From NCBI GenBank assembly GCA_017686895.1, contig GCA_017686895.1_4521.1: DNA of 64,000 bases, one strand, 5' to 3'. The notes beneath the pieces are model-generated. The model had not been told where the DNA came from, did no database searches, and was given only the letters and a program-made list of their open reading frames with translations. The position numbers and the translations under genes were made by a program. The stretch's first letter is position 1. Each line of letters begins with the position of its first letter. Below, piece by piece: positions 29,142 to 63,532 of the stretch. This DNA comes from a phage.

Positions 29142-30959
29142 ATGATTAAAAACGAAATTAAGGTATTGTCAGATGTAGAACATATTAAGAAACGTAGTGG
29201 TATGTATATTGGTTCTTCGGCTAAAGAAGCACATGAGCGTTTTTTGTTTGGTAAATATCAACAAGTTGAATATGTTCCTGGTCTGGTTAAATTAATCGAT
29301 GAGATTATTGACAACTCGGTTGATGAAGCTATTCGTACATCATTTAAGTTTGCAAATAAAATTGATGTGCAAATTAAAAATAATCAAGTTTCGGTGGAAG
29401 ATAACGGACGTGGTATTCCTCAAGGTTTAGTTACTGACCAAACAGGTGAACAAATTCCTGGGCCTGTAGCAGCCTGGACTATTCCAAAGGCCGGTGGTAA
29501 CTTTGGTGATGATTCTGAACGCAAGACTGGTGGTATGAACGGCGTCGGGAGTAGTTTAACTAATATCTTCTCTACGTTGTTTACAGGCATCACGTCAGAT
29601 GGCGAAAATGAAATCACTGTTAACTGTTCAAACGGAATGGAAAACAAATCATGGTCTTCTAAGAAATCTAAAGGTAAAGGCACTAAAGTAATCTTCACTC
29701 CTGATTTCACTTCATTTGAAGAGAATAATTTATCTCAAATTTATTTAGATATTACTTTAGACCGACTTCAAACATTGGCAGTTGTTTATCCTGATATCAA
29801 GTTCACATTTAATGGTAAAAAGGTTGATGGTAATTTTAAACGATTTGCTAAACAATTTGGTGAAGATAACATCATTCAAGAAAATGATAAAGTCTCTATA
29901 GCATTCACAACATCACCAGATGGCTTCCGTCATTTAACTTATGTGAATAACATCCATACTAAAAATGGTGGTCATCATGTTGAATGTGTAATGGATGATA
30001 TTTGCGAACATCTTTTACCGGGTATTAAAAAGAAATATAAGGGTATTGAAGTCACTAAAGCTCGTGTTAAAGAATGCCTCACAATGTTGATGTTTATTAG
30101 AGACATGAGCAATATGCGTTTTGATTCTCAGACTAAAGAACGTTTAACGTCAACGTATGGTGATATTCGTAATCATATCCAATTAGATGCTAAGAAAATT
30201 GCTCAGGCACTTCTTAAAAACGAAGCCTTGATTATGCCTATTGTTGAAGCAGCATTAGCTCGTAAATTGGCAGCAGAAAAGGCTGCAGAAACTAAAGCAG
30301 CTAAAAAGGCAACTAAAGCTAAGGTTCATAAGCATATTAAAGCTAACCGATGTGGTAAAGATGCAGATACGACATTGTTTTTAACAGAAGGTGATTCGGC
30401 AATTGGTTATCTCATTGATGTTCGTGACCGTGAACTACACGGTGGATTCCCATTACGTGGTAAGGTGATGAATAGCTGGGGTATGTCATATGCTGATATG
30501 ATGAAGAACAAAGAGCTCTTTGATATCTGTGCTATCACAGGTCTTATTCTTGGTGAAAAGGCAGAGAATACGAACTATCGTAATATTGCAATTATGACTG
30601 ATGCAGATCACGACGGTCTTGGAAGTATCTATCCGGCTTTGCTTGCTTTCTTTAGTAATTGGCCTGAATTGTTTGAACAAGGACGTATTCGCTTTGTTAA
30701 AACGCCTGTAATTATTGCACAAATTGGCAAAACTCAAAAATGGTTTTATACTGTAGCTGAGTATGAAGAAGTTAAAGATACACTGCCTAAGCATAGTATT
30801 CGATACATCAAGGGATTAGGCTCCCTTGAAAAGTCAGAATATCGTGAAATGATTCAGAACCCTGTGTACGACGTAGTTAAACTTCCTGAAAATTGGAAAG
30901 AACTCTTTGAAATGTTGATGGGTGATGATTCAGAACTTCGTAAAGAATGGATGTCCTAA
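29142..30959 (+). CDS. 39: DNA topoisomerase II large subunit gp39 (GyrB-like, single unsplit ORF)
   Basis: 605 aa with GHKL ATPase (VEDNGRGIP) and Toprim (LTEGDSA, DADHDG) in one frame; T4 splits this into 39 and 60. Confidence 0.92.
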   Translation: MIKNEIKVLSDVEHIKKRSGMYIGSSAKEAHERFLFGKYQQVEYVPGLVKLIDEIIDNSVDEAIRTSFKFANKIDVQIKNNQVSVEDNGRGIPQGLVTDQTGEQIPGPVAAWTIPKAGGNFGDDSERKTGGMNGVGSSLTNIFSTLFTGITSDGENEITVNCSNGMENKSWSSKKSKGKGTKVIFTPDFTSFEENNLSQIYLDITLDRLQTLAVVYPDIKFTFNGKKVDGNFKRFAKQFGEDNIIQENDKVSIAFTTSPDGFRHLTYVNNIHTKNGGHHVECVMDDICEHLLPGIKKKYKGIEVTKARVKECLTMLMFIRDMSNMRFDSQTKERLTSTYGDIRNHIQLDAKKIAQALLKNEALIMPIVEAALARKLAAEKAAETKAAKKATKAKVHKHIKANRCGKDADTTLFLTEGDSAIGYLIDVRDRELHGGFPLRGKVMNSWGMSYADMMKNKELFDICAITGLILGEKAENTNYRNIAIMTDADHDGLGSIYPALLAFFSNWPELFEQGRIRFVKTPVIIAQIGKTQKWFYTVAEYEEVKDTLPKHSIRYIKGLGSLEKSEYREMIQNPVYDVVKLPENWKELFEMLMGDDSELRKEWMS

Positions 30960-30975
30960 GCTCCTTCGGGAGCTT
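30958..30975 (+). other. UUCG-tetraloop hairpin (AAGCTCC-TTCG-GGAGCTT) overlapping the gene 39 stop
   Basis: 7-bp perfect stem; weak U-tract. Confidence 0.5.
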
Positions 30976-31001
30976 CATTTTAATTTTAATAAGGCTTAAT
31001 T

Positions 31002-32102
31002 ATGAAAGTTATGTTTATCCCATCTCGTGCAGTCCCATTTAATCCTGACCGTGTACAAGGTGGTCTTGAAGCAGTACATTTAAATGTGTTGAAATATCTT
31101 GTGTCCATCGGTGCTGATATTGATTATATCGGCTTTGATAATGACGTGTTTGGTGATTGGAAAGTTACACACCATCCTGTCGGCCATCTGACTAAATTCA
31201 GTCTAGGTATGAGTTATACTATGGCTCGTAAGATTGTTGAACTAGCCGGCATCCATGAATACGATTTTGTTGTTACTATGGAACCGACTAAACTAACCGT
31301 TCAGGCAATTAAAGACGCAGGTCTCTCTAAAGTTCATAAGAATTTTATGGCAACACCATTTGAACCGGTATCTCGTGGCATTGTTCAAATTTGGGACCAG
31401 ACTATTCAAATTCATAAGAATGGTGGTAAGAGTTATGCTCCTACTAAAGCCTTCCGTGAATTTGAACGCAAATATTGTTATATGACTTCAGGTCTGACTG
31501 ACAAAATTGATTATGATTATTGGCGAGCAAATCCGTTGTTTGAAGCCGAAGATTATCCGGTTATTTGTTTGAATGAGAAACCTGAAGTTCTTCCGGCGAC
31601 TGATCTGATTATTAGTGCACAACGTTATGACACTAAAATGCGTCGTACTGATGTTGCTCTTGAAGCGATTAAAGCACTAGGCGAAAATGGTGTAGGATAC
31701 TGTCCTAGTAAATGGGCGCCACCGGCTAAGTATCCTGTTATTATTGATGCTCCACATAGTGAAATCATGGAACGTCTTAAAACAGCTAAAGCACTTATCA
31801 ATACGTGTCCTGACACAGGTACGGTAGAGAATAGTTCTATTGAAGCCATCTCTAAAGGTGTCCCTGTAATCCAGTTAGTTTTTAAGGATTATCCTCATGC
31901 GACATTTGAATACGACCCAGATACTGTGCGTGTAGAAATTGATTCCTCTACTCCTAAGAAAGAAGTAGTTGCGCTTTACACAAAAGCTGTATTAGAATTC
32001 ACTGACACATACGAAGCTCGAGTTAAACGTGCTGAAGCCGTATGGAAGAAGTATAACCGAGATGCAGTTGTTGCGATGTGGGATAAAATCTTCACAGCGT
32101 AA
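31002..32102 (+). CDS. GT-B-type glycosyltransferase, candidate hmC-DNA arabinosyltransferase
   Basis: 366 aa; N-terminal DRVQGGLEAVHL and C-terminal TGTVENSSIEAISKGVPVI (E-x7-E-like); lies between 39 and rIIA. Confidence 0.7.
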   Translation: MKVMFIPSRAVPFNPDRVQGGLEAVHLNVLKYLVSIGADIDYIGFDNDVFGDWKVTHHPVGHLTKFSLGMSYTMARKIVELAGIHEYDFVVTMEPTKLTVQAIKDAGLSKVHKNFMATPFEPVSRGIVQIWDQTIQIHKNGGKSYAPTKAFREFERKYCYMTSGLTDKIDYDYWRANPLFEAEDYPVICLNEKPEVLPATDLIISAQRYDTKMRRTDVALEAIKALGENGVGYCPSKWAPPAKYPVIIDAPHSEIMERLKTAKALINTCPDTGTVENSSIEAISKGVPVIQLVFKDYPHATFEYDPDTVRVEIDSSTPKKEVVALYTKAVLEFTDTYEARVKRAEAVWKKYNRDAVVAMWDKIFTA

Positions 32103-32194
32103 ATCCTGAATAGCCTGAGGCACTATTACACATAAGATGATAGATTATATGGTCTTTAGTAATAGTGCCCTAGGAATCTACTGAAGAGAATATT

Positions 32195-32395
32195 ATGAGA
32201 ACATATAACGTGGACTTGGAACTTTTTGATAAAGCAGTGCTCCGGGAATTCCGGCTTATCCAAAGATTTTTTGATATTGAGTCAGCAGAGTCCTTTAAAG
32301 AACGCTTTAAAGAAATTCGATATAAAATACAAACCGATACAGCTACTAAAGAAGAACTTCTTGAAGTAGCAGAAATTTTTAAACGTAACTTGTGA
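32195..32395 (+). CDS. Hypothetical protein (rIIA.1 position)
   Basis: 66-aa ORF. Confidence 0.45.
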   Translation: MRTYNVDLELFDKAVLREFRLIQRFFDIESAESFKERFKEIRYKIQTDTATKEELLEVAEIFKRNL

Positions 32396-32407
32396 TGAGA
32401 GAAAAAT

Positions 32408-34621
32408 ATGATTATTGAAACGGCTAAAGAAACGATTATTGGTTCAGGCGGTAAGAGCACAGCATTTACTATTCAAGGCAATAGCAAAGTTTATAAGATT
32501 TTGTCTAATGACCTTTATACAAACAAAGAATTGGCTTGTGTACGTGAATTAATTACAAACTGTATCGATGGACAAATTCTTAACGGTTGCACTGATAAGT
32601 TTATTATTCAGGCTCCAGGTCGGTTAGACCCGCGCTTTGTAGTTCGAGACTTTGGTCCTGGTATGAGCGATTTCACCATTAGAGGTAATGACGAAGAGCC
32701 AGGAATTTATAACTCATATTTTGCTTCAACTAAAACATCGAGTAACGATTTCATCGGTGGATTCGGACTCGGCTCTAAAGCTCCGCTAGCATATACCGAT
32801 ACGTTTAACCTTACGTCTTATCACAACGGCGAAGTTCGTGGTTACGTAATCTACCAAGATGACACGGGTCCACAAATTAAGCCGACCTTTGTAGATAAGA
32901 TGGGTCCTGATGACCGTACTGGTGTAGAAGTAGTTGTACCGGTTAACCCGGAAGATTTTGAAAAGTTCGCATCCGAAATTGCATATGTTATGCGTCCTCT
33001 AGGTGATATTGCAGAAGTTCGTGGTGTTAAAGATATTAAATACTTCCCTGAATTTGACGATGTATATTTGGCCAAGGAAGCTCCATGGGGTGAACGCGGT
33101 AATATCATGGCTGTTTATGGCGGTATTGTATATCCAATCGGAAGTGTTATTAAAGAACAAACATGGATGATGACTCGATGCACTACAGCTTATATTAAAT
33201 TCCCTATGGGTGAACTAGACGTAGCTCCGTCTCGTGAAGCATTGTCATTTGATAAACGTACAGTAGCAAATATCCATAAACGCGTTGCAGAAATCGATGC
33301 TAAATTGTTCGCTGAAGATTCTAAGAAATGGATTGATTGTAAATACCCGCGTCATGTGTTCCGTGAAATTGATTCTCTTGGCTATACCGCTCGTAAATAC
33401 ATGGAAAAGGCCGGGTCTAATATTGAATCGCTGAAATACTCCAAAGAACAACTAACTTATTCTGAGTTGTACAAACGTTTTAAAATGGGGCCTGAGTGGT
33501 GTAATCTTGGCGTAGTATACGATATCGTTGAATCCCCTCGTCTTCGTCGTATTCGTGAAAGTGGTAGCTCAACGGCAACCATTTCAATTAACAGTCTGAT
33601 TGGCATTAACATTAAAAATGTTGAAATTGTTATTGACGACGTTAAGGGACGCGTTCCATTAATGCGAGCTCTTAATTCAATTGAAATGTCTAAAGACGAG
33701 GTTAAATTAACTGGTAAAGTTCCACGCGGTTTTGGTAAAAGTGTACTATTCGTTGACCCTACAGACGAAGATGCAATGAAACTTCTGGAACGCCTTAAAG
33801 TTATCTTTGATGGCGACAATATTAACATGTACAAGACTTCAGAGCTTTTACAAATCGTTAAGCCATGGATTGAAGTCAGGAAACGGACTAATGAGCCTCG
33901 TCCTAAATCGCCAAGTGCTCATCGATTCTTTAAGAATGAAAATGATGTTTGGGTATCAGAAGACCTCTTTATTCCGGCAAGTGAAGCAGATGAAATCCAA
34001 GGTTATGCTATAGTTCGTAATCGTTCTAATGCTGAATGTCTTGACGCAGATAAAGGTTGGTTGAACTATGACTCCAATTTCTTGACCCGTATTGCTGATT
34101 TGTCAGGTATTAAAGAGTTCACTGTAGTTCGTCCGCAGATTGCTAAGAAAGTTCGTAAACTTGGTGAAGTAGAATGCTTGTTCGAAAAATCAATTAATGA
34201 CTATATTACGCTAATCGATAAAGTGGATTATGATGAGTATGTATCACCAAGTCGTAGAGCACAGCCTTATTTGAATCATATTACTCGTAATGAAGAGCTT
34301 AACTTCCTTAGTAAGTATTTTAGCTCTAAGAACAAAGAAATCAGTAAAGACTTTGCAAAACTCTCAACAGTAAATAATCGTTGGGGATGGAATCGATTCG
34401 CAGGTGCTACTAATACAGACCTGAATAAGAAGTTAGAATTGTGTGCTAAAATTTTCGATAAGCTTAAAGATAATGCTTACGATAATGATGATAAAATGGT
34501 TATTGAATTCGAAACCAATTATCATATTGTGTCAGACTACATGGGACGACGTGGTACTCTTTCTAAAGAACAAGTCGCTCAAATCGTTAAATTCATGAAG
34601 GCTGTGGAAGCAGCCAAATAA
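32408..34621 (+). CDS. rIIA: rIIA protein
   Basis: 737 aa; extensive identity to recalled T4 rIIA (ELITN.ID, GRLDPRFV.RDFGPGMSDF, NDFIGGFGLGSK). Confidence 0.95.
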   Translation: MIIETAKETIIGSGGKSTAFTIQGNSKVYKILSNDLYTNKELACVRELITNCIDGQILNGCTDKFIIQAPGRLDPRFVVRDFGPGMSDFTIRGNDEEPGIYNSYFASTKTSSNDFIGGFGLGSKAPLAYTDTFNLTSYHNGEVRGYVIYQDDTGPQIKPTFVDKMGPDDRTGVEVVVPVNPEDFEKFASEIAYVMRPLGDIAEVRGVKDIKYFPEFDDVYLAKEAPWGERGNIMAVYGGIVYPIGSVIKEQTWMMTRCTTAYIKFPMGELDVAPSREALSFDKRTVANIHKRVAEIDAKLFAEDSKKWIDCKYPRHVFREIDSLGYTARKYMEKAGSNIESLKYSKEQLTYSELYKRFKMGPEWCNLGVVYDIVESPRLRRIRESGSSTATISINSLIGINIKNVEIVIDDVKGRVPLMRALNSIEMSKDEVKLTGKVPRGFGKSVLFVDPTDEDAMKLLERLKVIFDGDNINMYKTSELLQIVKPWIEVRKRTNEPRPKSPSAHRFFKNENDVWVSEDLFIPASEADEIQGYAIVRNRSNAECLDADKGWLNYDSNFLTRIADLSGIKEFTVVRPQIAKKVRKLGEVECLFEKSINDYITLIDKVDYDEYVSPSRRAQPYLNHITRNEELNFLSKYFSSKNKEISKDFAKLSTVNNRWGWNRFAGATNTDLNKKLELCAKIFDKLKDNAYDNDDKMVIEFETNYHIVSDYMGRRGTLSKEQVAQIVKFMKAVEAAK

Positions 34622-34630
34622 GGAAACATT

Positions 34631-35578
34631 ATGTACAATATTAAATGCTTGTCTCAAGAAGAACAGTTAGAAGCTTACGGCCTGGTTGAATCAGGCAAAT
34701 GGACTCGTAAAGAAATTGCCGATTACTTCGACATTTCAACAGATACTCTTCGTAAGATTGTTAAGAATTTTAAAGCAGAAGGCGTTGTCCCTGAAGCAAA
34801 CGATGCCTCTTATGTAATCGAAGAAGTTCCAGAAAATGATGAACCTATTATCGGCGGACATCGTCCAGAAATCGTATGGAACGCATCATCTAAATTTATT
34901 TCAATCATTGAAGGACGCGTAGCATACAATGCGACCCCATCAAGTCATGCAAATTTTGAAGAAATTAAAGCTAATCTGGTCGCAGGAAACCTTAGTAAAG
35001 CTGTCGAACTTATTAACATCAAGAAAGCTATTACTAAGTTTGTTGATGGTAATGTTACTATTGAAGGTGGTAGTTTATTTTATCAAGGTATAGAGATTCG
35101 TTCAGGGCTGGTTAACCGTATTATTGATTCCATGGAAAAAGGTGAAGACTTTAAATTCTATCTGCCATTCCTTGAAAACCTGTTAGAAAACCCAAGCGAA
35201 AAAGCTGTACAACGTTTATTCGACTTCTTGGTTGCAAATGATATTGAAATCACTGAAGATGGGTATTTCTATGCGTGGAAAGTAGTTCGTAAAGACTATT
35301 TAGATTGTTATAGCGGTACATTTGATAACTCACCAGGTAAAGTTGTTTCAATGCCTCGTACTCGTGTTAACGATGATGATACACAAACCTGCTCCCGCGG
35401 TCTACATGTTTGCGCTAAATCATATATTCGTTACTTTGGTTCAAGCTCAGATAAAGTTGTTAAGGTTAAAGTTCATCCACGTGATGTTGTATCCATCCCA
35501 GTTGACTATGGTGATGCTAAGATGCGTACTTGTCGTTATGAAGTAATTTCAGACGTTACTGAATTATTTGCAGAATAA
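34631..35578 (+). CDS. rIIB: rIIB protein
   Basis: 315 aa; starts MYNIKCL; C-terminal half near-identical to recalled T4 rIIB. Confidence 0.95.
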   Translation: MYNIKCLSQEEQLEAYGLVESGKWTRKEIADYFDISTDTLRKIVKNFKAEGVVPEANDASYVIEEVPENDEPIIGGHRPEIVWNASSKFISIIEGRVAYNATPSSHANFEEIKANLVAGNLSKAVELINIKKAITKFVDGNVTIEGGSLFYQGIEIRSGLVNRIIDSMEKGEDFKFYLPFLENLLENPSEKAVQRLFDFLVANDIEITEDGYFYAWKVVRKDYLDCYSGTFDNSPGKVVSMPRTRVNDDDTQTCSRGLHVCAKSYIRYFGSSSDKVVKVKVHPRDVVSIPVDYGDAKMRTCRYEVISDVTELFAE

Positions 35579-35583
35579 TAATT

Positions 35584-35604
35584 GGGGACTTCGGTCCCCT
35601 TTTT
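35584..35604 (+). terminator. Rho-independent terminator (GGGGAC-TTCG-GTCCCC plus TTTTT) after rIIB
   Basis: Perfect 6-bp GC-rich stem, UUCG loop, T-run. Confidence 0.75.
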
Positions 35605-35618
35605 CTTTAGGGGTAATT

Positions 35619-35906
35619 ATGATTCATCCATTTGACGTATCAGAATCCAAAATTGCTAATCTTCGTGGTCATCATAAGTGTAAATCAGTTTATTGTGCTA
35701 AATTGGTAAAACATCCTGGTGATGCACACTACGGCTGGTTAGAATGCGACGAAGTTGTTATTGAAATCCCACCGGTAGATGCTAACTATCTTGAAGAAGG
35801 AGACCGCATTTATTTTGGCGAACTACACATCAGAGGTATCTATGGTAAAGACGAACTTGGGACTGTTGAGACTGAAGAATCTTCCGACATTTATCCTGTC
35901 GAATGA
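35619..35906 (+). CDS. Hypothetical protein
   Basis: 95 aa from the ATG after the terminator; track ORF 35568 begins inside the terminator. Confidence 0.4.
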   Translation: MIHPFDVSESKIANLRGHHKCKSVYCAKLVKHPGDAHYGWLECDEVVIEIPPVDANYLEEGDRIYFGELHIRGIYGKDELGTVETEESSDIYPVE

Positions 35907-35922
35907 GTTTTTGACTAGTGAA

Positions 35923-36399
35923 ATGAAAGTGAAGATTGCTGACACTGCTCGGTATTCACTAAGCCAAAATCCAGACCAAAACAAAGAAGATGTAGTTCGA
36001 CGTTGTAAGGTTGCAGTCTTTGCAGAGTATGTAGTAGCAAATTGGCTAGACGGATATGTTAATAAAGGTATTGAAGATGTAGAAGACCCGTACACGTATG
36101 CATGGGACGTGTTAGCCCATCCCAAATATTGTGGAATTCGTGTAGAAGTCAAGACACATCAGATGGATTCTAAATGGATTTCTGTTACCACAGGATACAG
36201 TGGTGATTATCCGGGTGGCAACGGAATCAACATAGGGCCCTTCCTTAATCATCGAGTCGCTGACTGTATTATTATATTGAATGTCAAAGAAACCTCACCT
36301 GACGTCTTCTCTTATTCTATAAAGTTCGTTGGAGACCATGAAGACCTAAAGAAAATCGTCCGCAAGAGCAACTACAACGGGTGGTATCTTCATCTTTAA
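35923..36399 (+). CDS. Hypothetical protein (denB position)
   Basis: 158 aa from ATG 35923; the upstream extension to 35779 would overlap the previous ORF by over 120 nt. Confidence 0.35.
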   Translation: MKVKIADTARYSLSQNPDQNKEDVVRRCKVAVFAEYVVANWLDGYVNKGIEDVEDPYTYAWDVLAHPKYCGIRVEVKTHQMDSKWISVTTGYSGDYPGGNGINIGPFLNHRVADCIIILNVKETSPDVFSYSIKFVGDHEDLKKIVRKSNYNGWYLHL

Positions 36400-41590: not shown

Positions 41591-41792
41591 TTCTAAAGCA
41601 GATTATTTTAATTCTGTTAATGATAAGAATAAAGCTTTAATTCGCCACTTTATTACTGAGATGGGTTATACTGACTCTAAAGATTTGAAAGAGCACATTA
41701 TCGAATGTTCTGTGGCTAAAAAGTTTTCTTTCACAGACAAATGTTTAAACGAGGTTATAAATCATTATGAACAATCTTGTAGCAAAACATGA
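41574..41792 (+). CDS. Hypothetical protein
   Basis: 72-aa ORF. Confidence 0.4.
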   Translation: MMRIIDSKADYFNSVNDKNKALIRHFITEMGYTDSKDLKEHIIECSVAKKFSFTDKCLNEVINHYEQSCSKT

Positions 41793-41875
41793 TTTCAATA
41801 AGGCTTCTGTCCATAAGGACAAGAAGAAATCAGAACTTCAATCTAAGCGTAAACAAAAACATAAGGGTAAAGACT

Positions 41876-42163
41876 ATGTTTACTAAAATCAAAGAAAATC
41901 CTGCCACTGAACTTGTTATTCGTTGTGAAGAACTTGCAGAGCTTTATCAGGTTAACCGAGAAGTGTGTCGTAGTGTTATCGTAGATATGGCAGACGAAGT
42001 ATGTTCTCGTATTCCTTTTAGCGTTGATTTCAATCATATGAAGCCTGGTGAAATCACTATCGTCTTTGGTTCTGACTATACTGAAGAACGGGCTCTTAAT
42101 GTCCTAGAATATGAAATGTCGTTCTTTGACATACAGGACTACATTGATAGTTATAAGGAATGA
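41876..42163 (+). CDS. Hypothetical protein
   Basis: 95 aa from internal ATG 41876. Confidence 0.4.
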   Translation: MFTKIKENPATELVIRCEELAELYQVNREVCRSVIVDMADEVCSRIPFSVDFNHMKPGEITIVFGSDYTEERALNVLEYEMSFFDIQDYIDSYKE

Positions 42164-43350: not shown

Positions 43351-44130
43351 TTAAATCCAGGAGCCGTAGATTGTGCCTGTAGCACCCCATGACGGTGAAC
43401 TTCCGAATACTGCTCTGCCAGGAGCACCACCGCCAGATCTAGATAAGTGATTACCCCATCCATCTCCGCCACGACCTCCAGCATCACCGCCATTGCCTCC
43501 GCCGAATTGGGAAGTGTAACCGGCCCCGCCCGGGGCGTCATAACTAGCATTACCACCCGGCCAATTAACGCCACCTCCGCCGATGCCAAATGGTCTACCA
43601 CCACCGCCACCTGCTGTAGCATTTGGCGCCCAGCTATTCTGTAATGACACTGCACCACCTCCGCCACCGCCTGATGCAATAACACCATAGTTCCAAATAC
43701 GAAGTCTTCCGCCGATATCATTTTGGATTACATCGCCACCATTAGTGCCTGGGTTTCCGTTTACAGTACCGTTACCACCTCGTCCCCACATATGAACTCC
43801 ACCATGAATATTCAAAGTAACATATTCATTTGGCGTATCGCCATACATAAAGAATAATGGAACATCTTTACTATATGATACTAAATTTCCAGTGATATTA
43901 AACACTATAGGTGCACTACCTGCCTCAAAACATCTATCTCGGAACCATTGACCATTGAAGTTATGGTCTGCTCCAAGTGTGTGAATAATCTCACGAGACC
44001 GACCAGCAAATTGCGACATTGATACCGGTAGTCCCAATCTTAACTGTCCAGCCGCTGCAGACATCAATCGCTGGCCTGTTTCAGCCACTGCTGATGTTCC
44101 AATCCAACCAGGAATTCCTACTACTGCCAT
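43351..44130 (-). CDS. 38: Tail fiber adhesin gp38 (T2-type, glycine-rich motifs)
   Basis: 259 aa with repeated poly-Gly blocks ([39 protein letters not shown]); immediately downstream of gene 37. Confidence 0.75.
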
Positions 44131-44140
44131 AAAAACCTCC

Positions 44141-44156
44141 AGGGCCCGAAGGCCCT
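44141..44156 (-). other. UUCG-tetraloop hairpin between genes 37 and 38
   Basis: On the minus strand AGGGCC-TTCG-GGCCCT, followed by SD GGAGG of gene 38; no U-tract. Confidence 0.5.
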
Positions 44157-44159
44157 TTA

Positions 44160-47100
44160 TTATAATAATGATTTAATTAATGCTTTCAATTCAGCAATTT
44201 CAGATTTCAATTCCTTGATTTCGTCAGTATGCTCGTTGATAGTAGCAGTATTTAAACCGATAATACCGTTATAGTTTAAACGAAGTAAGCCGGTCTCTTT
44301 ATCTTCAGAAACAAGTTCAGGTAATACTTCTTGAACTTCCTGAGCAATTAAACCTGCGGACGGTTTAACTTCGTCTGTAACAGAGTTTTTAAGCAGATAA
44401 GTATAACCGCCCAATAGTTTAGATTTCTCTTGGGCATTCTCTATAAGCTTAATTTCTGACTTACAACGAATATCAGAACGAATATAAACGTCGTTAACAT
44501 CGATGTTATCACGAACATACATACCTGCATTACAGTGGAAGTTAACATCACCGAATGTCTGAGCTAAACCAGGTCTAAAACTAAACACACCTTGGCCGTT
44601 TGCATATGCGTTGAAAATACCATCGTTTTCCCAAAGCAAACCGGTATCGTTATCTCCCAGTACAATACACGGCCCGGCCCATGCAGGGTCACCGCCGCCT
44701 GCTGATACTCTGCCGCTCTTAAGTAAGCTAGGGGCATAAAAAACACCATTATGATGGAATTCATAGATGGCTTGGGGGTCAGAACCGTTTTCCTGGTTAC
44801 CTACACGAATAATACCTTGTGCCCAGGTATTAGTAATGCGTTGCATACCAAAATCTACGCCGGATACGTATCCTTCGTTAGTAATACCGGATTTTCCTTT
44901 AATAATAGGATAATAACTATCATTACCGACATTACCAAAATCTACAAATATAGGAGCTTCTTGGCGCCATTGGTTAGCCCAGTCACCGCCCTGGTGTGCG
45001 GTCCATTGTGTACCGTTTATATGGAGGCGGTCTCTATTAAAATTAAATGTTCCTTGGCCTTGAGGAGAAAGCGATATTTCACCGTTAGTTGTTATGTATA
45101 CACCGCCTTGTGTAATGTAACTGTAAAAACCTAGACCATTGTCGGCACCGCCTTTACCAATATACCAATTATTGGCCCCGGCCGTATCAGAACGAATAAA
45201 TGATGAATCACTGGCCAAAGGAGGATTAAGAACTATTCCAGCAGCATCTTTATTAATCCAAAGAGTGCCGGTCATCGTATCACCTTCTTTGGCAACACGA
45301 GTAGCTATTGCGTCGCGAATATTAGTTACGTCGCCTGCAGAAGTAAACGTTTTCCAAATATCCGAGAAAATATTACCATTACGAGCAATAGCAGCTTCAC
45401 CACCACCGACCAGAACGTTATCTGGGAAGTTAACAGTACCGTCTTGATTAAAACGAGATGTATGTCCTTGAGTTCCGTCTTCTTTTAAATGATGAATAAC
45501 AAATGTGCCTGAATTAATTTCAGTGCCTAAAGACCAAACGGCTTTACCATTTAAAAACTTCTGTTTAACAATAGGATAATATTTGCTTACAGCATCGTCA
45601 TCGATTTCCTGGAAAATAGGAGCCGCTTGAGCATATTGAATATCATAACCGCCGGCACCCGCTCCATGGCCAACAAATTTAATATAGCCGTTCGCAGTGA
45701 TCGTATTGTATTTTGATTGTAAATCTGGAATAGTAACTTTACCAGTATCTAAAGCCATACTAAACGGGCGAAGTGGACCGATATCGCCGTGTTTACCTTC
45801 ACCGTAAGCAGTTGGAATAATATGAAGACTATCTTCTGAACGTCTAAAAATAGCTCCATAATCTGCGTTCCAAATACGAAGAGCATTCACTTCTCCAGAT
45901 GAAATTTCACCTGTTGTGTGAACTCCTCTATCTCCAGCAGTAACACCAGATGATTCAAATGAGCCATTAACGTTCATTTCTACTTCGCCAGTAGTAAGTC
46001 TTTGAATATAGCTCATCCAGCTAGTTGCATCAGAAATTTCCATAATGTTTTTACGGATACCTCCGCTTGGATCAACAAACGTATTACCCCAAACTTTAAT
46101 ATCCATATTATCAACCGAGCTGTATCCTGTTGTGTTGCCTCTAAACATTAGTGTAGAAGAATTATTTCTACCATCTATATTAACAGAACCGCCAATAACA
46201 TCAATATTACCAGGAGTAACCAACAAACCGCCATGAGTATTAATGTTTGTGGTACCCTTACCACGGAAATAGTGATGATAGTTACCGCCTTGATAATATC
46301 CCAAAAGAGTCTGACCATCTCCAAACGCGTTATTATCGTGATATGTCACAACAGTAGCAAGAGCATAGTTTTCAGTTGGAGGAGTAGTTAAATCGGCTCC
46401 ATTAGTAGAATATCCAGCTACAAATTTTCTTAGGCTAGTTGTTTCGCTAGGATTAAATAAAAACGTTTTTGTTCCATTATTAACGCTGAAATAATATCCG
46501 TCTTGATGCCATTTAAATCCAGTATCATTATCCCCAAGAACAATAGAACCTTTACCTAAGGTTGAATATGTCATAGGCCCTGATTCCATACCTACTGCAA
46601 TCGAATGGCCTGCTTGAAAACCGCCGGAATAAGCAAAAGATAACATATAATCAGTAGGGGTTGAACCAGAATACCAACTGATGCCGTTGTTTTCACAAAT
46701 TTCATGGAGCATTGCGGCCGCTGGGTCGGTACGTACAACACGTAAATTATTTTTATCTGTATTAGAATTATTATTTGCTAATGAATAGATGTCATAATCA
46801 CCTGCCTTCTTCCCGTCTGTAATGACTTTGTCAGTCAAAATCTGAGGAGTTGACATAGATTTCCATGCCGATACTTCAGGTGAAATAAATTGTCCACTGC
46901 CTGAAAATGCATAGGTGCTTTCGCTACCAGCTGCGTAGTCTTGAACTCTAATATTAATTACTTGTGTAGTTAATCCATCATTAGCAGGAGAAAAAATGAT
47001 TCCACGTTCACGGTCAGCTGAATCATGAAAACGAACATGTGATGTACCTGAACTTTTTGTAATAAGTTCTCCGCCTTCAGTCATAATCTGCCCAGCGGCA

Positions 47101-47396
47101 ATAATATCGCGAGTTACTCGAGCAATACCAGTTAAATTAAAATTACCAGTCTGAGTGAAGACGCCATTTAAAGTATAATCACCAGTTTGATTATAGTTTC
47201 CTATATGAATAACATTCCCGTCAATACTACCACCCTTAGCAAAACCAAGATCAATGATATTTCCTTGGTCGTCTTTAGTAAAAAGTACGCGGTCTTTTAA
47301 GTTTATAGCCAATTCACCTTCGGCTAATACTGAAGCGGCAGGACGTGCTCCTGCAGTTTTGCTTCTTTTAAATTGTATTTGTTTTAAAGTAGCCAT
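44160..47396 (-). CDS. 37: Long tail fiber distal subunit gp37
   Basis: 1078 aa; conserved N-terminus and C-terminal intramolecular-chaperone region; position between 36 and 38. Confidence 0.9.
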
Positions 47397-55368: not shown

Positions 55369-55397
55369 GCTTTATTTCTTGTGTGTTAAAATTACTT

Positions 55398-55405
55398 TAT
55401 AAATA
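55398..55405 (+). promoter_or_regulatory. Late-type promoter TATAAATA upstream of gene 32
   Basis: Exact consensus about 80 nt before the gene 32 ATG. Confidence 0.4.
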
Positions 55406-55415
55406 AATCATACCA

Positions 55416-55484
55416 GCTACGAGGTATAAGTGTCGTAGCAACCAACTGTAAATAAATTAAATAATCTAAATAAAGGTAAATATA
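55416..55484 (+). promoter_or_regulatory. Gene 32 5' leader: hairpin (GCTACGA...TCGTAGC) plus AU-rich repeats, candidate autoregulatory operator
   Basis: 7-bp inverted repeat 55416-55439 followed by TAAATAAATTAAATAATCTAAATAAA; resembles the T4 gene 32 operator layout. Confidence 0.45.
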
Positions 55485-56497: not shown

Positions 56498-56890
56498 ATG
56501 GAAATCGGAAAATCTTATATCATTAACCCTTTATTTAAAGACGACTTTGTTCAAGAAGCACCACACAATAACGCTAAGATGTTAAAATTAATTGAACTCC
56601 ACGGGCCTAGTTTTGTTGTAAACGGAATGGAACCTGATTATGATAGCGATACGTCAAACGTAGTAAGTGTAACTATGGAAGATGGTACTGTATGTTCTGC
56701 CGGTGGTGAAATTGAAACTTATTTTGAGATTTATCCTGACGAGTTCAAATACTTTATTGAGGTAGATTTAGTAAAGCCTCAACCTACTAACGAAGGTATA
56801 ACTTTAGGTGTAACAAAAATCCATTGTATCGTAGATGAAACCAACGTCGACGAAATCATCAAACTTTTGCAAAAAACTTTTAAAAAGTAG
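56498..56890 (+). CDS. Hypothetical protein (frd.3 position)
   Basis: 130-aa ORF. Confidence 0.5.
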   Translation: MEIGKSYIINPLFKDDFVQEAPHNNAKMLKLIELHGPSFVVNGMEPDYDSDTSNVVSVTMEDGTVCSAGGEIETYFEIYPDEFKYFIEVDLVKPQPTNEGITLGVTKIHCIVDETNVDEIIKLLQKTFKK

Positions 56891-56927
56891 TTTATAACAA
56901 GATAGGGTTATGTTATAGTAGCCCTAT
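56890..56927 (+). promoter_or_regulatory. Early-type promoter GTTTAT-N18-TATAGT with flanking inverted repeat
   Basis: G of the -35 is the last base of the TAG stop; ATAGGGTTA / TAGCCCTAT arms bracket the -10. Confidence 0.45.
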
Positions 56928-56953
56928 CAAATAAAAGTGAAGAGGAGAATAAA

Positions 56954-57196
56954 ATGAGATTGCAACGCCAGAGCATCAAAGATTCTGAAGTTAGAGGTAA
57001 ATGGTACTTCAACATCGTCGGTAAAGACGCTGAACTTGTTGAAAAAGCTGAACATCTTTTACGCGATATGGGTTGGGAAGATGAATGCGATGGATGTCCA
57101 CTCTATGAAGATGGTGAAAGTGCAGGATTCTGGATTTACCACTCTGATGTTGAATCGTTTAAAGCTGATTGGAAAATTGTGAAAAAGTCTGTTTGA
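56954..57196 (+). CDS. Hypothetical protein
   Basis: 80-aa ORF. Confidence 0.45.
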   Translation: MRLQRQSIKDSEVRGKWYFNIVGKDAELVEKAEHLLRDMGWEDECDGCPLYEDGESAGFWIYHSDVESFKADWKIVKKSV

Positions 57197-57207
57197 GGAA
57201 AAATAAT

Positions 57208-57450
57208 ATGATTTTTGTATTTGAATTTATGAATGACGAATTCGATTATGCAATTTTTAACGCATTGCATAATCCCGATTTAAGTGAATTTAATGAAATG
57301 TTTTCTGACGCTTTGAGTATGTCAGAAGAATACTGTGGAGAATGTCAACGTGTTTGTGTGACAGTTTTTGAAAACAAAGAAAAGACATATGAAGAGTTAT
57401 TCTTTGACGCTAATAAAGCCACTGAATGGTTTATTGAAAAGGGGTTTTGA
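57208..57450 (+). CDS. Hypothetical protein
   Basis: 80 aa from ATG 57208 (SD GAGGAA). Confidence 0.4.
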   Translation: MIFVFEFMNDEFDYAIFNALHNPDLSEFNEMFSDALSMSEEYCGECQRVCVTVFENKEKTYEELFFDANKATEWFIEKGF

Positions 57451-58408
<958 letters not shown>

Positions 58409-58421
58409 TTATAGGTGCTAA

Positions 58422-59282
58422 ATGAAACAATACCAAGATTTAATTAAAAATATCCTTGAAAACGGTTACGAAACAGACGACCGTACAGGCACAGGAACAA
58501 TTGCTCTGTTCGGAACTAAATTACGTTGGGACCTGACTAAAGGATTCCCTGCAGTAACAACTAAGAAATTAGCATGGAAAGCTTGTATTGCCGAGTTATT
58601 GTGGTTCATGTCCGGTTCTACTAATGTTAATGAATTACGTCTTCGTACTCATGGTAGTCTAATTGAAGGTAAAACTATTTGGGACGACAACTATGAAAAT
58701 CAGGCAAAAGACCTTGGATATCATAGCGGCGAACTTGGTCCTATTTATGGTAAGCAATGGCGTGATTTTGGCGGTGTAGACCAATTGGTCAAAACTATCG
58801 ACCGCATTAAAGCTCTTCCTAATGATCGTCGTCAAATAGTTTCTGCATGGAATCCGGCCGAAATAAATCAAATGGCTCTTCCTCCTTGCCATATGTTCTA
58901 TCAGTTCAATGTGCGTAATGGTCATCTTGATTTACAATGGTACCAGAGAAGTGTTGATGTTTTCTTGGGTTTGCCATTCAACATTGCCTCGTACGCTGCC
59001 TTGACTCATATTGTAGCTAAGATGTGTAATCTTATCCCGGGTGATTTAGTGTTCTCAGGCGGCAACACGCATATCTACATCAATCATGTAGAACAATGCA
59101 AAGAAGTTCTTCGTCGTGAGCCTAAAGAACTGTGTGAACTTAAAATTGATTGGCCTGAAGGATTCTCTGATTGGAGCACGACATTACAGCTTCATTGGGT
59201 AACAGAGCATATGAATCCGAGTGATTTCATTCTTAAAAATTACGAATCACATCCAGCTATCAAAGCTAAAATGGCGGTATAA
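58422..59282 (+). CDS. td: Thymidylate synthase (uninterrupted)
   Basis: 286 aa; PPCH catalytic Cys, DRRQIVSAWNP, classic TS motifs; single continuous ORF. Confidence 0.93.
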   Translation: MKQYQDLIKNILENGYETDDRTGTGTIALFGTKLRWDLTKGFPAVTTKKLAWKACIAELLWFMSGSTNVNELRLRTHGSLIEGKTIWDDNYENQAKDLGYHSGELGPIYGKQWRDFGGVDQLVKTIDRIKALPNDRRQIVSAWNPAEINQMALPPCHMFYQFNVRNGHLDLQWYQRSVDVFLGLPFNIASYAALTHIVAKMCNLIPGDLVFSGGNTHIYINHVEQCKEVLRREPKELCELKIDWPEGFSDWSTTLQLHWVTEHMNPSDFILKNYESHPAIKAKMAV

Positions 59283-59283
59283 A

Positions 59284-59532
59284 ATGATTTTACGTTTTAT
59301 TAATTCATATGGCACCACAATTTTTGAAATGAAAAATCCAAGTGAACTGGATATCCCTTCACCAAATAGTGAAATCACAGTTAAAGGTGAACGATTCATT
59401 TGCCATTCACACGAACGAATTTATGAATATCGTGAATTTTGTGGTGGTTACGGTATGGAAAAAGAACCATTGGTTTATTTCGATATCACGGTCTTGACAC
59501 CTAAAGAATATGAAGAATTGGAACGTAACTAA
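59284..59532 (+). CDS. Hypothetical protein
   Basis: 82 aa from ATG 59284, directly after the td stop. Confidence 0.4.
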   Translation: MILRFINSYGTTIFEMKNPSELDIPSPNSEITVKGERFICHSHERIYEYREFCGGYGMEKEPLVYFDITVLTPKEYEELERN

Positions 59533-59750
59533 TGGGTATCAATATTCGTATTGTTCGTAAAGGACATGGTAGTAAAAAGGTGTTAGCTGAACTTTATAAT
59601 GCTAATCCTCTTGAGCTCCCTATTAAAACTGAGACAATTAATGTTGACGGCTTTGAAGAGAGAGAGTTCTCTCTGTTACAAAGGTGTATGAATATAATAA
59701 GCATAATCTTTTGGATAATGTTTATGACTGTTGGTTTGAGGTTGACGTAA
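59532..59750 (+). CDS. Hypothetical protein
   Basis: 72-aa ORF, TAATG coupling. Confidence 0.4.
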   Translation: MGINIRIVRKGHGSKKVLAELYNANPLELPIKTETINVDGFEEREFSLLQRCMNIISIIFWIMFMTVGLRLT

Positions 59751-59751
59751 C

Positions 59752-60057
59752 ATGAAAATATGCCGCGTAGTGAATAAATACAAATCAGATTTTGATGTTA
59801 ATATTCACCGTGGCACATTCTGGGGAAATTATGTAGGCAAGGATGCCTCTTCTCGAGAAGAAGCTATTGAGCTTTTCAAAAAGGATTTTATTAAAAGAAT
59901 TAGAAGTGGAGAAATCACAAAAGCTCATCTTGAACCTTTACGTGGGATGCGATTAGGATGCACATGTAAACCAAAAGCCTGTCATGGTGATATAATAGCT
60001 CTAGTGGTTAATAAACTTTTTAAAGATGAATTTAATATAGAGGACATATGCAAGTAA
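59752..60057 (+). CDS. Hypothetical protein with CxC...CHGD motif
   Basis: 101-aa ORF; LGCTCKPKACHGD. Confidence 0.45.
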   Translation: MKICRVVNKYKSDFDVNIHRGTFWGNYVGKDASSREEAIELFKKDFIKRIRSGEITKAHLEPLRGMRLGCTCKPKACHGDIIALVVNKLFKDEFNIEDICK

Positions 60058-62303
60058 CTAAGAGCAGTGGTGTATCCCAAAATTTTGATGCACAGAAAAT
60101 TATTCAAGTCTTAACTTGGCAGTGTGAAGGAACACAAATCGACCCATACGAATTGTATGAAGAAATTAAGACTCATCTGGTTGATGGGATGAGCACCAAA
60201 GATATCCAGAAGATTTGTATTAAAGTTGCAGCTAACTTGATTTCTGTCGAAGAACCTGACTATCAATATGTTGCCGCTAAAGGATTAATGTTTGCACTTC
60301 GTAAAGATGTGTATGGGCAGTTTGAACCGCCTGCTTTTATCGACCATATTTCTTACTGTGTTAATGAAGGCAAATATGACCCTGAGCTGTTGTCTCAGTA
60401 TTCAGCAGAAGAAATCATTTATCTCGATTCACAGATTAAACATGAACGAGACTTTGACTTGACTTATGCTGGTGCTATGCAGCTTAAAGAAAAATACCTG
60501 GTTAAAGATAAAACAACCGGTAAGATTTATGAAACTCCGCAGTTTGCTATCATGGCTATTGGCATGGCCTTACACCAAGACGAAACTCATGACCGTTTGA
60601 AACATATTATTCGTTTTTATGATGCTGTTTCTACTCATCAAGTTTCATTGCCTACTCCAATTATGGCAGGTGCTCGTACTCCAACTCGCCAGTTCTCTAG
60701 TTGTGTAGTTATTGAAGCCGGTGATTCGTTAAAATCTATTAACAAAACTTCAGCATCAATTATTGAATATATTTCTAAACGAGCTGGTATTGGTATCAAC
60801 GTTGGTATGCTTCGTGCAGAAGGTTCTAAGATTGGTATGGGTGAAGTTCGACATACAGGTGTTATTCCATTCTGGAAACATTTCCAAACTGCAGTAAAAT
60901 CTTGTTCTCAAGGTGGTATTCGTGGTGGTGCTGCTACAGCGTATTATCCGATGTGGCACTTAGAAGTAGAGAACCTATTAGTTCTGAAAAATAACAAAGG
61001 TGTGGATGAAAACCGTATTCGACATATGGACTATGGAATTCAGATTAATGACCTCATGATGGAACGCCTTGGCAAAAATGATTATATTACTTTATTTAGC
61101 CCTCACGAAATGTCAGGCGAACTATATTACTCGTTCTTTGAAGATCAAGATAAATTCCGTGAGCTTTATGAGAAAGCTGAAAAAGACCCAACAATCAGAA
61201 AGAAAAGAATCAAAGCACTAGAACTCTTTGAATTGTTCATGACTGAACGTTCTGGTACTGCTCGAATTTATCCACAGTTTGTTGATAACACGAATAACTA
61301 CACTCCATTTATTCGTGAAAAAGCTCCAATTCGTCAGAGTAACTTATGTTGTGAAATCGCTATTCCAACTAATGATGTGAATGGCCCTGATGCTGAAATT
61401 GGTTTATGCACGTTATCTGCTTTTGTATTAGATAAATTTGATTGGCAAGACCAAGATAAAATTAATGAACTTGCTGAAGTACAAGTACGTGCACTTGATA
61501 ACCTGTTAGACTATCAAGACTATCCGGTTCCAGAAGCTTTAAAAGCCAAAAAGCGTCGAAATCTCGGTGTTGGTGTGACGAACTATGCTGCATGGTTAGC
61601 TTCTAACTTTGCTTCATACGAAGATGCTAACGATTTGACTCATGAATTGTTTGAGAGATTACAATATGGCCTTATCAAAGCGTCAATCAAACTTGCCAAA
61701 GAAAAAGGACGTTGCGAGTATTATTCAGACACTAAATGGTCTCGAGGCGAATTACCTATCGACTGGTACAATAAAAAGATTGACCAAATCGCAGCCCCAA
61801 ACTATGTATGTGATTGGGAAGAACTACGAGCCGAACTTAAAGAACACGGGATTCGTAACAGTACACTCAGTGCTCTCATGCCATGCGAATCAAGCAGCCA
61901 GGTCTCAAATAGCACAAATGGTATTGAACCACCTCGTGGCCCAGTAAGTATTAAAGAATCTAAAGAAGGTAATTTCCGTCAAGTAGTTCCTAATATTGAA
62001 CACAACATGGGTCTTTATGACTATGCGTGGAAACTCGCTAAGAAAGGTAATAAGCCTTATCTGACACAAGTTGTTATCATGTTAAAATGGGTGTGCCAAT
62101 CTGCTTCTGCTAATACATACTACGACCCTTCAGTCTTTGAGAAAGGCAAAGTGCCAATGTCTGTAATGCTTGATGACTTGCTTTACTTCTGGTACTTTGG
62201 TGGTAAGAACCTTTACTATCATAACACTCGAGATGGTTCTGGTACAGATGACTATGAGTTAGAAACGCCTAAAGCTGAAGATTGCTCCGCTTGTAAGCTT
62301 TAA
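60048..62303 (+). CDS. nrdA: Ribonucleotide reductase class Ia large subunit
   Basis: 751 aa; catalytic NLCCEI motif and C-terminal Cys pair (CSACKL). Confidence 0.95.
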   Translation: MQVTKSSGVSQNFDAQKIIQVLTWQCEGTQIDPYELYEEIKTHLVDGMSTKDIQKICIKVAANLISVEEPDYQYVAAKGLMFALRKDVYGQFEPPAFIDHISYCVNEGKYDPELLSQYSAEEIIYLDSQIKHERDFDLTYAGAMQLKEKYLVKDKTTGKIYETPQFAIMAIGMALHQDETHDRLKHIIRFYDAVSTHQVSLPTPIMAGARTPTRQFSSCVVIEAGDSLKSINKTSASIIEYISKRAGIGINVGMLRAEGSKIGMGEVRHTGVIPFWKHFQTAVKSCSQGGIRGGAATAYYPMWHLEVENLLVLKNNKGVDENRIRHMDYGIQINDLMMERLGKNDYITLFSPHEMSGELYYSFFEDQDKFRELYEKAEKDPTIRKKRIKALELFELFMTERSGTARIYPQFVDNTNNYTPFIREKAPIRQSNLCCEIAIPTNDVNGPDAEIGLCTLSAFVLDKFDWQDQDKINELAEVQVRALDNLLDYQDYPVPEALKAKKRRNLGVGVTNYAAWLASNFASYEDANDLTHELFERLQYGLIKASIKLAKEKGRCEYYSDTKWSRGELPIDWYNKKIDQIAAPNYVCDWEELRAELKEHGIRNSTLSALMPCESSSQVSNSTNGIEPPRGPVSIKESKEGNFRQVVPNIEHNMGLYDYAWKLAKKGNKPYLTQVVIMLKWVCQSASANTYYDPSVFEKGKVPMSVMLDDLLYFWYFGGKNLYYHNTRDGSGTDDYELETPKAEDCSACKL

Positions 62304-62353
62304 GAATTTTGTTTATAATTGACTCATGGATGAGTCACTATTGAGAGAATATA

Positions 62354-63532
62354 ATGAGTACAGTTTTTAATACCCAAAAAGTTGATGTTTTGAATGAACC
62401 AATGTTCTTTGGTTCTGGTCTTGGCCTTGCGCGTTACGATATTCAACGCCATAAAGTTTTTGAAGAGCTTATTGAAAAGCAATTGTCGTTTTTTTGGCGC
62501 CCTGAAGAGGTAAACTTGATGTTGGACTCTGCGCAGTTCAATAAGCTTCCACAGTTCCAACAGAACATCTTTACGAACAACCTTAAGTATCAATCATTAT
62601 TGGATTCTATCCAAGGCAGGGCACCATCTGCGGTACTTATGGCATTACTTTCCGACCCTTCATTAGATACATGGGTTGCTACATGGACATTCAGTGAAAC
62701 CATTCACTCTCGTTCATATACTCATATCATGCGAAATCTTTATACTGATCCATCGAAGGTATTTGATGAGATTGTATTAGATGAAGCAATTATGAAACGT
62801 GCGGAATCCATTGGACGTTATTATGATGACGTTCTGATTAAAACCCGTGAATGGGAAAATGCTAAAGAAATTTTTAAACGTTTTTCCGAAAATGAATATG
62901 ATTTAGATGCATATTCAAATAGTCTTATGCACATGGAAGAATGTAAACATGACCTAATGAAGTCTCTTTATCTCTGTTTGCATGTTATCAACGCCTTAGA
63001 AGCTATTCGTTTTTATGTATCATTTGCATGTACTTTCAACTTCCATAAAAATATGGAAATTATGGAAGGCAATGCAAAGATTATGAAGTTCATTGCTCGT
63101 GACGAACAACTCCATCTCAAGGGTACTCAGTACATTATCCGTCAACTTCAATCTGGTACTGACGGTGATGAGTGGGTTCAAATTGCTAAAGAATGTGAAC
63201 AAGAAGCAGTTGACATTTTTATGGAAGTAAATAGTCAAGAGAAGGAATGGGCTGCACACCTTTTTAAAGATGGTACATGTCCGGGTATCAATACTCAGAG
63301 TATGTGTGCTTTTGTTGATTACTTGACTGTGTCTCGTATGAAACAGTGCGGTTTGCCATGCCCAATCACTGACGCTCCGACCAAGCATCCGTATCCTTGG
63401 ATTCGTGAATATCTGAACTCTGATTTAGTTCAAGCAGCTCCTCAGGAAGTTGAAATCAGTTCTTATCTTGTTGCACAAATTGATAATGATGTAGACCAAA
63501 ATGTAATCAATTCATACAAAAAATATTTCTAA
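62354..63532 (+). CDS. nrdB: Ribonucleotide reductase class Ia small subunit (uninterrupted)
   Basis: 392 aa; di-iron/tyrosyl radical motifs; single continuous ORF. Confidence 0.95.
   Translation: MSTVFNTQKVDVLNEPMFFGSGLGLARYDIQRHKVFEELIEKQLSFFWRPEEVNLMLDSAQFNKLPQFQQNIFTNNLKYQSLLDSIQGRAPSAVLMALLSDPSLDTWVATWTFSETIHSRSYTHIMRNLYTDPSKVFDEIVLDEAIMKRAESIGRYYDDVLIKTREWENAKEIFKRFSENEYDLDAYSNSLMHMEECKHDLMKSLYLCLHVINALEAIRFYVSFACTFNFHKNMEIMEGNAKIMKFIARDEQLHLKGTQYIIRQLQSGTDGDEWVQIAKECEQEAVDIFMEVNSQEKEWAAHLFKDGTCPGINTQSMCAFVDYLTVSRMKQCGLPCPITDAPTKHPYPWIREYLNSDLVQAAPQEVEISSYLVAQIDNDVDQNVINSYKKYF

Follow-up and report, generated by a model that had tools for sequence, protein, structure and literature searches.

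The window analyzed here, a stretch of 64,000 nucleotides (nt) from phage contig GCA_017686895.1_4521.1, holds the td, nrdB and topoisomerase large-subunit genes, loci that in T4 carry group I introns, homing endonucleases and the gene 39/60 split with its translational bypass, as is seen in the T4 record. Gene identities were assigned by combining an open reading frame (ORF) map with gene-by-gene tblastn searches against the T4 reference; the window is of the T-even type, is read in the early-gene sense, and shows gene-by-gene orthology with T4, with no additional sequence where T4 has its elements. Seven of the 15 T4 homing-endonuclease loci (segA, segF, the mobA pseudogene, segG, mobE, I-TevI and the I-TevIII relic) fall within the part of T4 that is homologous to the window. 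The sites compared comprise the td intron and its I-TevI, the nrdB intron and its I-TevIII relic, the mobA/gene 60 bypass cassette, and the segA, segF, segG and mobE sites. All seven are empty in the window, a state that, like the gene identities, is observed directly. The loci concerned are as follows, with protein lengths in amino acids (aa) and the kind of evidence in parentheses.

10751-10848, plus strand: spacer of 98 nt upstream of uvsX, the T4 segA site, empty (ORF map, T4 annotation, tblastn, gap list)
19346-19390, plus strand: gene 56-soc spacer of 45 nt, the T4 segF site, empty (ORF map, T4 annotation, tblastn)
29142-30959, plus strand: gene 39, unsplit topoisomerase II large subunit of the T2/T6 type, 605 aa (tblastn, DNA alignment, Pfam)
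About 30562-30618, plus strand: empty mobA/bypass cassette site in gene 39 (DNA alignment)
55369-55484, plus strand: gene 59-gene 32 spacer of 116 nt, the T4 segG site, empty (ORF map, T4 annotation, tblastn, gap list)
58422-59282, plus strand: td, uninterrupted thymidylate synthase gene, 286 aa (tblastn, DNA alignment, Pfam)
60048-62303, plus strand: nrdA, uninterrupted, 751 aa (tblastn, Pfam)
62304-62353, plus strand: nrdA-nrdB spacer of 50 nt, the site of T4 mobE and nrdB.1, empty (ORF map, T4 annotation, gap list)
62354-63532, plus strand: nrdB, uninterrupted class Ia ribonucleotide reductase beta subunit gene, 392 aa (tblastn, DNA alignment, Pfam)
63559-63969, plus strand: denA (endonuclease II), 136 aa (Pfam, tblastn against T4)

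The td product has the same length as that of T4, and in tblastn its residues 1-183 are 89% identical to the product of T4 exon 1, with 72% identity between residues 184-286 and that of exon 2. In the DNA alignment the 1017-nt T4 td intron forms one block without counterpart between window positions 58970 and 58971, where the sequence reads ...TTCTTGGGT|TTGCCATTC; the junction at this intron-less point can also be written ...GATGTTTTCTTGGGT|TTGCCATTCAAC... The Pfam profile Thymidylat_synt (PF00303) covers the protein from end to end (profile positions 1-266 of 266, expect value (E) 3.5e-97), and td is identified as a thymidylate synthase by its full-length match to both this profile and the spliced T4 product.

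The nrdB gene presents the same picture. The 598-nt T4 intron has no counterpart in the window, its insertion point falling between positions 63029 and 63030, and identity to the two T4 exons is 84% and 87%. The Pfam profile Ribonuc_red_sm (PF00268) matches with E 3.5e-37, and the family profile together with the spliced T4 product places nrdB among the class Ia ribonucleotide reductase beta subunits. As a side observation on the neighboring nrdA, this gene is present as two ORFs in Tequatrovirus F2, where it is split by a 236-aa mob-like HNH endonuclease that is 46% identical to T4 MobE.

Gene 39 encodes in one chain what T4 divides between two genes, with residues 1-474 matching T4 gp39 (79% identity) and residues 473-605 matching gp60 in tblastn. 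A 1109-nt block of T4 (record positions 3911-2803), comprising the gp39 C-terminal extension, the mobA pseudogene, 60.1, the gp60 N-terminal extension and the bypass gap, is missing from the window gene, which has approximately 55 nt of continuous coding sequence (30562-30616) instead; the gp60 N-terminal extension within this T4 block carries the homologous replacement region. The site of the 50-nt T4 bypass gap corresponds approximately to window positions 30616-30618, where the protein continues as ...EKAENTNYRNIAIMTDADHDGLGSIYP..., and over both element sites it reads ...GEKAENTNYRNIAIMTDADHDGLGSIYPALL... without interruption. Bypass cassettes are recognized by a topoisomerase large subunit split at Toprim, C- and N-terminal extensions encoded by the element, a mobA gene or pseudogene, and a 50-nt coding gap after a GGA take-off codon and then a stop. 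The window has a single ORF that reads GAC GGT CTT GGA AGT at this position, with no stop and no gap. Pfam identifies HATPase_c, DNA_gyraseB, Toprim and TOPRIM_C domains in the one chain, the last two occupying residues 411-604, which marks the protein as an ATPase/Toprim subunit of a type IIA topoisomerase (GyrB/ParE-like). It aligns from end to end with the solved T6 gp39 chain 8ylu_C (residues 1-605 against 1-604, 1163.6 bits), and the artificial T4 gp39-gp60 fusion matches in two stretches.

These results bear out the initial annotation, which had described td and nrdB as uninterrupted genes and gene 39 as one 605-aa ORF that includes the Toprim domain: the ORFs lie at 58422-59282, 62354-63532 and 29142-30959, they are collinear with the two spliced T4 products and with the joined gp39-gp60, and on alignment to the T4 td, nrdB and 39/60 regions, which it had proposed as a check, each T4 insertion resolves to a single point at which the window reads through. 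Since the ORFs are continuous and match full-length profiles, no splicing, ribosome bypass or three-subunit assembly is needed for their products.

Homing endonucleases were also searched for across the window. The 15 T4 homing-endonuclease proteins and gp60.1 were used as queries in tblastn against the window and in phmmer --max against its six-frame ORFs of at least 40 aa, and none gave a significant match (best E = 0.08). Two of the weak hits were rejected as chance: a segC match to the antisense ORF 22009-22488 (E 0.08-0.09), which overlaps a modA/B-like gene on the opposite strand and belongs to no Pfam or PHROG family, and an I-TevI match within gene 43 (E 0.095). Home-built profiles for the N-terminal domains of GIY-YIG and HNH enzymes recovered all nine seg/I-Tev and all five mob genes from six-frame translations of T4 as a control (E 1e-15 to 1e-56; 1e-24 to 6e-44 for the GIY-YIG profile, with mobB-E and the mobA pseudogene recovered by the HNH profile), and gave no match in the window (best E 0.4). 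The window has no GIY-YIG homing endonuclease of the seg, I-TevI or I-TevII kind, free-standing or intron-borne and defined by an N-terminal catalytic domain followed by a DNA-binding C-terminal region, and no HNH homing endonuclease of the mobA-E or I-TevIII kind, with the HHIIPR...GG.D...N motif, by these searches. The mob-like endonuclease that splits F2 nrdA and the I-TevI of phage AV110 likewise found nothing in the window when used as queries.

Profile libraries were Pfam-A and PHROGs, with ORFs that have clear T4 orthologues scanned by Pfam in part only. Pfam and PHROGs scans of 30 ORFs, the majority lacking a T4 counterpart, found no endonuclease family, the families returned being those of sugar-nucleotide and nucleotide metabolism, domains of unknown function (DUFs) and PHROGs of unknown function. 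For the remaining 112 six-frame ORFs of this size class (40 aa or more), Pfam gave seven chance-level matches and no nuclease family; these scans covered all such ORFs that lack a T4 counterpart. Once 95 genes had been placed, no space between genes was longer than 267 nt, which is too short for a homing endonuclease gene. For introns, Rfam at the gathering threshold returned nothing in the window, a result that is uninformative as the T4 control introns are missed too; with an E-value threshold RF00028 (Intron_gpI) picks up the td and nrdB introns of T4 at 40.3 and 35.7 bits, and at the same settings the window has no RF00028 match at E <= 1 and thus no recognizable group I self-splicing intron. 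A Y_RNA match at 25868-25958 (E 0.59) was rejected as chance.

The sole GIY-YIG domain in the window is that of denA (PF01541, E 1.8e-6). This protein was rejected as a homing endonuclease because it is the orthologue of T4 denA, a nuclease that degrades host DNA, and is 78% identical to T4 EndoII over its full length. It sits just past 29142-63532, the range covered by the initial annotation, whose statement that no clear seg- or mob-type endonuclease ORF is present agrees with the homologue, profile, Pfam and PHROGs searches; the GIY-YIG and HNH profile search that it had called for returned no homing endonuclease, and denA leaves the absence of such enzymes standing. A protein annotated in phage moskry as a 'GIY-YIG catalytic domain protein' beside nrdB was considered as a further homing-endonuclease candidate and proved to be denA.

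Megablast searches of 50,697 phage records with 5.5 kb (39-rIIA) and 13.5 kb of the window matched numerous phages of E. coli and Shigella at 97.8-98.3% DNA identity, each as a single collinear piece. Over 140 records of Mosigvirus type match at approximately 98% DNA identity in one collinear piece, and Mosigvirus is the taxonomy line of several of the matching phages. This identity and these taxonomy lines point to an RB69-like source rather than a Tequatrovirus, and judged by its sequence the window belongs to a Mosigvirus genome (RB69-like Tevenvirinae); its collinearity with members of the genus and its gene set of the arabinosyl-hydroxymethylcytosine (arabinosyl-hmC) type agree with this placement. 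The genes are arranged in the following order.

First part: 44'-62-regA-43, a non-T4 block, uvsX-40-41 ... 61-56-soc ... srd-dda-dexA-motB
Middle: 39-(366-aa ORF)-rIIA.1-rIIA-rIIB-denB-ndd-52-motA-asiA
Late genes, minus strand: t, 38, 37, 36, 35, 34
Last part: rnh-dsbA-33-59-32-frd-td-nrdA-nrdB-denA

The frequency of the T4 elements among related phages was estimated with chimeric queries, in which exon flanks of the window were joined to a T4 element and a record was counted when at least 80% of the query was covered. The td-intron chimera was covered to this extent in 188 of 695 matching records, the nrdB-intron chimera in 114 of 679, and the mobA/bypass chimera in 42 of 296; among the matches listed for the last of these, all are T4 or T4-type phages. 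A 75-nt query over the uninterrupted td junction of the window was covered in 147 records, with an exact match in 21. Taken together, these coverages indicate that the empty alleles are the majority. The introns do occur close to the window: the Mosigviruses AV110 and 348Ecol098PP have a td intron whose I-TevI is 89% identical to that of T4, and the Mosigvirus vB_EcoM_WFK has an nrdB intron with a 269-aa ORF. All three carry the Mosigvirus taxonomy line and are approximately 98% identical to the window elsewhere, so the sites are polymorphic and the window carries their empty alleles; the td and nrdB introns are presence/absence polymorphisms within Mosigvirus, and their absence is not fixed in the genus.

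This pattern is in keeping with the literature. RB69 is tabulated without any homing endonuclease gene and T4 with 15 (PMC2993671, Table 5), and group I introns were not found in RB69 and four other T4-like genomes (PMC1524935). The topoisomerase II of T2 and T6 has two subunits, with gp39 unsplit, and T4 is described as the only case with three (PMC11461880). A rare mobile element, the mobA/bypass cassette is known from 28 genomic sequences in six clades, each of which has near-identical relatives without the cassette (bioRxiv 10.1101/2022.08.31.505936). A patchy distribution of introns among T-even phages appears, from references B11 and B12 as they are cited in PMC2988022, to have been on record since 1987-1989. 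The empty state is the ordinary, documented condition of T4 relatives and is already known; where the initial annotation implied that it is noteworthy, the comparison shows T4, and not the window phage, to be the outlier.

Several other features distinguish the window from T4. A block at 4202-10750 replaces T4 imm, 42, b-gt and segA. It also holds a 299-aa ORF of unknown function and a thymidylate-kinase-like ORF of 182 aa, together with the following.

4202-4837: SIS-domain arabinose-5-phosphate isomerase
5019-6704: nucleotidyltransferase plus kinase-like protein, 561 aa
6689-7090: phosphoheptose-isomerase-like ORF
7137-8306: Peptidase_U32-like ORF, 389 aa
8585-9301: deoxycytidine monophosphate (dCMP)-hydroxymethylase-like protein, only 25% identical to T4 gp42

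The 366-aa ORF that follows gene 39 (31002-32102) is annotated in a relative as a 'putative hmC-arabinosyltransferase', and tblastn against T4 genes detects no homologues of a-gt, b-gt or dam in the window. Arabinosyl-hydroxymethylcytosine modification has been reported for Mosigvirus (PMC8594841), and the genes of the non-T4 block and the lack of a-gt and b-gt fit such a modification. Genes 61 and 56 are just 267 nt apart (18542-18808) at the spot where T4 has dam, and homologues of imm and imm.1, which adjoin gene 43 in T4, are found at 15106-15784 between 61.4 and sp. The T4 61.2 homologue (16134-16793) matches the Pfam family AdfA (anti-DarT factor A) along its entire length (E 1e-120). 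Tandem paralogues are present at 21196-22443 (two modA/modB-like ADP-ribosyltransferase ORFs) and 25677-27189 (three consecutive motB/motB.1-like ORFs). On the minus strand within 43351-47396, gp38 is a T2-type adhesin (Pfam GP38, E 4e-83) and not a T4-type assembly chaperone, and similarity of gp37 to its T4 counterpart is confined to the N-terminal ~676 residues at 34% identity.

The surroundings of td and nrdA contain small accessory genes. A 115-aa ORF between frd and td (58061-58408; phrog_1928, RB32-like) is present in F2 and Shf125875 and absent from moskry and AV110. Another ORF, of 72 aa and hydrophobic at its C-terminus (59532-59750), lies in a region of variable ORFs (59532-60057) along with nrdA.1, a DUF4326 protein 86% identical to that of T4; both are missing in Shf125875 and AV110. 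The 115-aa (frd-td) and 72-aa (nrdA.2-nrdA.1) ORFs were considered as mobile elements in their own right and rejected, since neither shows a nuclease signature and both are too short.

The window is almost certainly a Mosigvirus segment with the unoccupied allele at all seven T4 mobile-element sites of the homologous region, a reading that rests on the alignments and searches above. Introns and free-standing endonuclease genes spread by cleavage of the empty allele during co-infection, followed by recombinational repair that copies the element (PMC2988022, PMC2993671). The window alleles would be of the recipient type in such homing, and from homing biology this genome would either never have received the elements or have regained empty alleles via recombination. 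Nothing observed contradicts the empty state, and the points that limit the reading are few. Several small ORFs are of unknown function, and a wholly novel endonuclease family is conceivable among them; histories in which the sites were never invaded or became secondarily empty both fit; and the profile searches drew on Pfam-A and PHROGs only, with partial Pfam coverage of the T4 orthologues.

Of the alternatives, the one that survives best is a history in which the sites were formerly occupied and the elements were lost through recombination with intron-less relatives or by precise deletion, which is possible but on balance unlikely. The td-nrdA interval is clearly mosaic, with Shf125875 identical to the window (100%) over the first ~315 nt of td and then only 79-82% identical, and with a td 3' end unusually divergent from all compared relatives, and replacement of the td-nrdA alleles is possible for this reason. 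Gain and loss of accessory ORFs among relatives (the 115-aa and 72-aa ORFs and nrdA.1) and the coexistence of intron-plus and intron-minus alleles in Mosigvirus would also be expected under such a history. However, no intron or endonuclease relic was found in the window searches, no Mosigvirus-type record occurs among the matches listed for the mobA/bypass chimera, and with empty alleles in the majority and RB69 free of elements, prior occupation need not be assumed.

A second alternative concerns td alone and would hold its empty allele to be a selected, I-TevI-cleavage-resistant variant that keeps the intron out through synonymous recoding at the cleavage and insertion sites. Cleavage by I-TevI requires a 5'-CNNNG-3' motif, also written 5'-CXXXG-3' (PMC2988022). 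At the position of this motif, -27 to -23 of the insertion site, the window has CAGAG (58944-58948), in contrast to CAACG in every other td compared (T4, moskry, Shf125875, F2, AV110 and 348Ecol098PP), the intron-bearing Mosigviruses included. The intron 5' end of AV110 and 348Ecol098PP td is unlike that of T4, and these two phages entered the comparison with the exon 1 flank alone. The exact window junction is common to 21 records, in all of which td is uninterrupted and which include ATK47 and O157 typing phage 3, and the intron occurs in close relatives. On the other hand, both the C and the G of the motif are kept at an unchanged distance from the insertion site, as is expected because the Gln and Arg codons fix both bases, and the differences are ordinary synonymous changes: within 58941-58982 the codons are TAC CAG AGA in the window and TAT CAA CGC elsewhere, and the first codons past the insertion site are TTG CCA rather than CTG CCG. 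I-TevI moreover tolerates many substitutions in its site, which counts against resistance. We take these differences as probable drift rather than escape, and an I-TevI-refractory 'immune' td allele, maintained where the intron circulates among Mosigviruses, seems improbable. Were it true, the allele would represent a natural case of target-site escape, constrained by the essential Gln-Arg codons.

It is very improbable that any of the ORFs without an assigned function (for example 9301-10200, 13896-14270, 16985-17479, 28653-29078, 41789-42163 and 58061-58408) encodes a homing endonuclease of an unrecognized family: although these have no Pfam family and match only PHROGs of 'unknown function', and the 115-aa and 72-aa ORFs come and go among relatives as mobile genes can, the candidates have no nuclease motif and no match to a homing-endonuclease family, most are syntenic and ~98% conserved in well over 100 genomes, the variable ones (72-115 aa) fall below the size range of the intact homing endonucleases of T4 (140-264 aa), and none interrupts a gene.

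Under the favored reading, in which the window is a Mosigvirus segment with unoccupied sites, td, nrdB and gene 39 can be entered in an annotation as plain continuous genes, and a homing endonuclease is not to be expected anywhere in this 64-kb region. Significance beyond correct annotation is small. The 15 homing endonucleases, three introns and gene 60 hop of T4 are peculiarities of T4 and its nearest kin and not of T-even phages generally, and pairs of phages that are empty and occupied at a site and ~98% identical elsewhere provide natural donor and recipient material for homing and marker-exclusion experiments.

Four known systems come close to the window. The intron-bearing Mosigviruses have occupied alleles of td (AV110, 348Ecol098PP) or nrdB (vB_EcoM_WFK, WFL6982) where the window has empty ones. 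RB69, the classical Mosigvirus reference phage, resembles the window in having neither introns nor homing endonuclease genes (PMC2993671, Table 5; PMC1524935). It is placed as the classical relative of the window phage by BLAST identity and by the annotation of phages with 96-98% identity to the window, in which td, nrdA, nrdB and denA are named after their RB69 counterparts; set against RB69, the td-nrdA interval of the window has the T4-like accessory nrdA.1 and the 115-aa RB32-like ORF, which are variable among Mosigviruses. The two-subunit topoisomerase II of T2 and T6 (gp39 + gp52) corresponds to that of the window in its single gp39 of ~605 aa with a continuous Toprim domain, the window gp52 being 88% identical to that of T4, and the only difference found is that of genus (Tequatrovirus as opposed to Mosigvirus). 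T4 itself shares with the window the same host genes and the same insertion positions, with 76-81% identity in the flanking exon DNA, and departs from it in its 1017-nt and 598-nt introns, its ~1.1-kb insert and its 50-nt coding gap.

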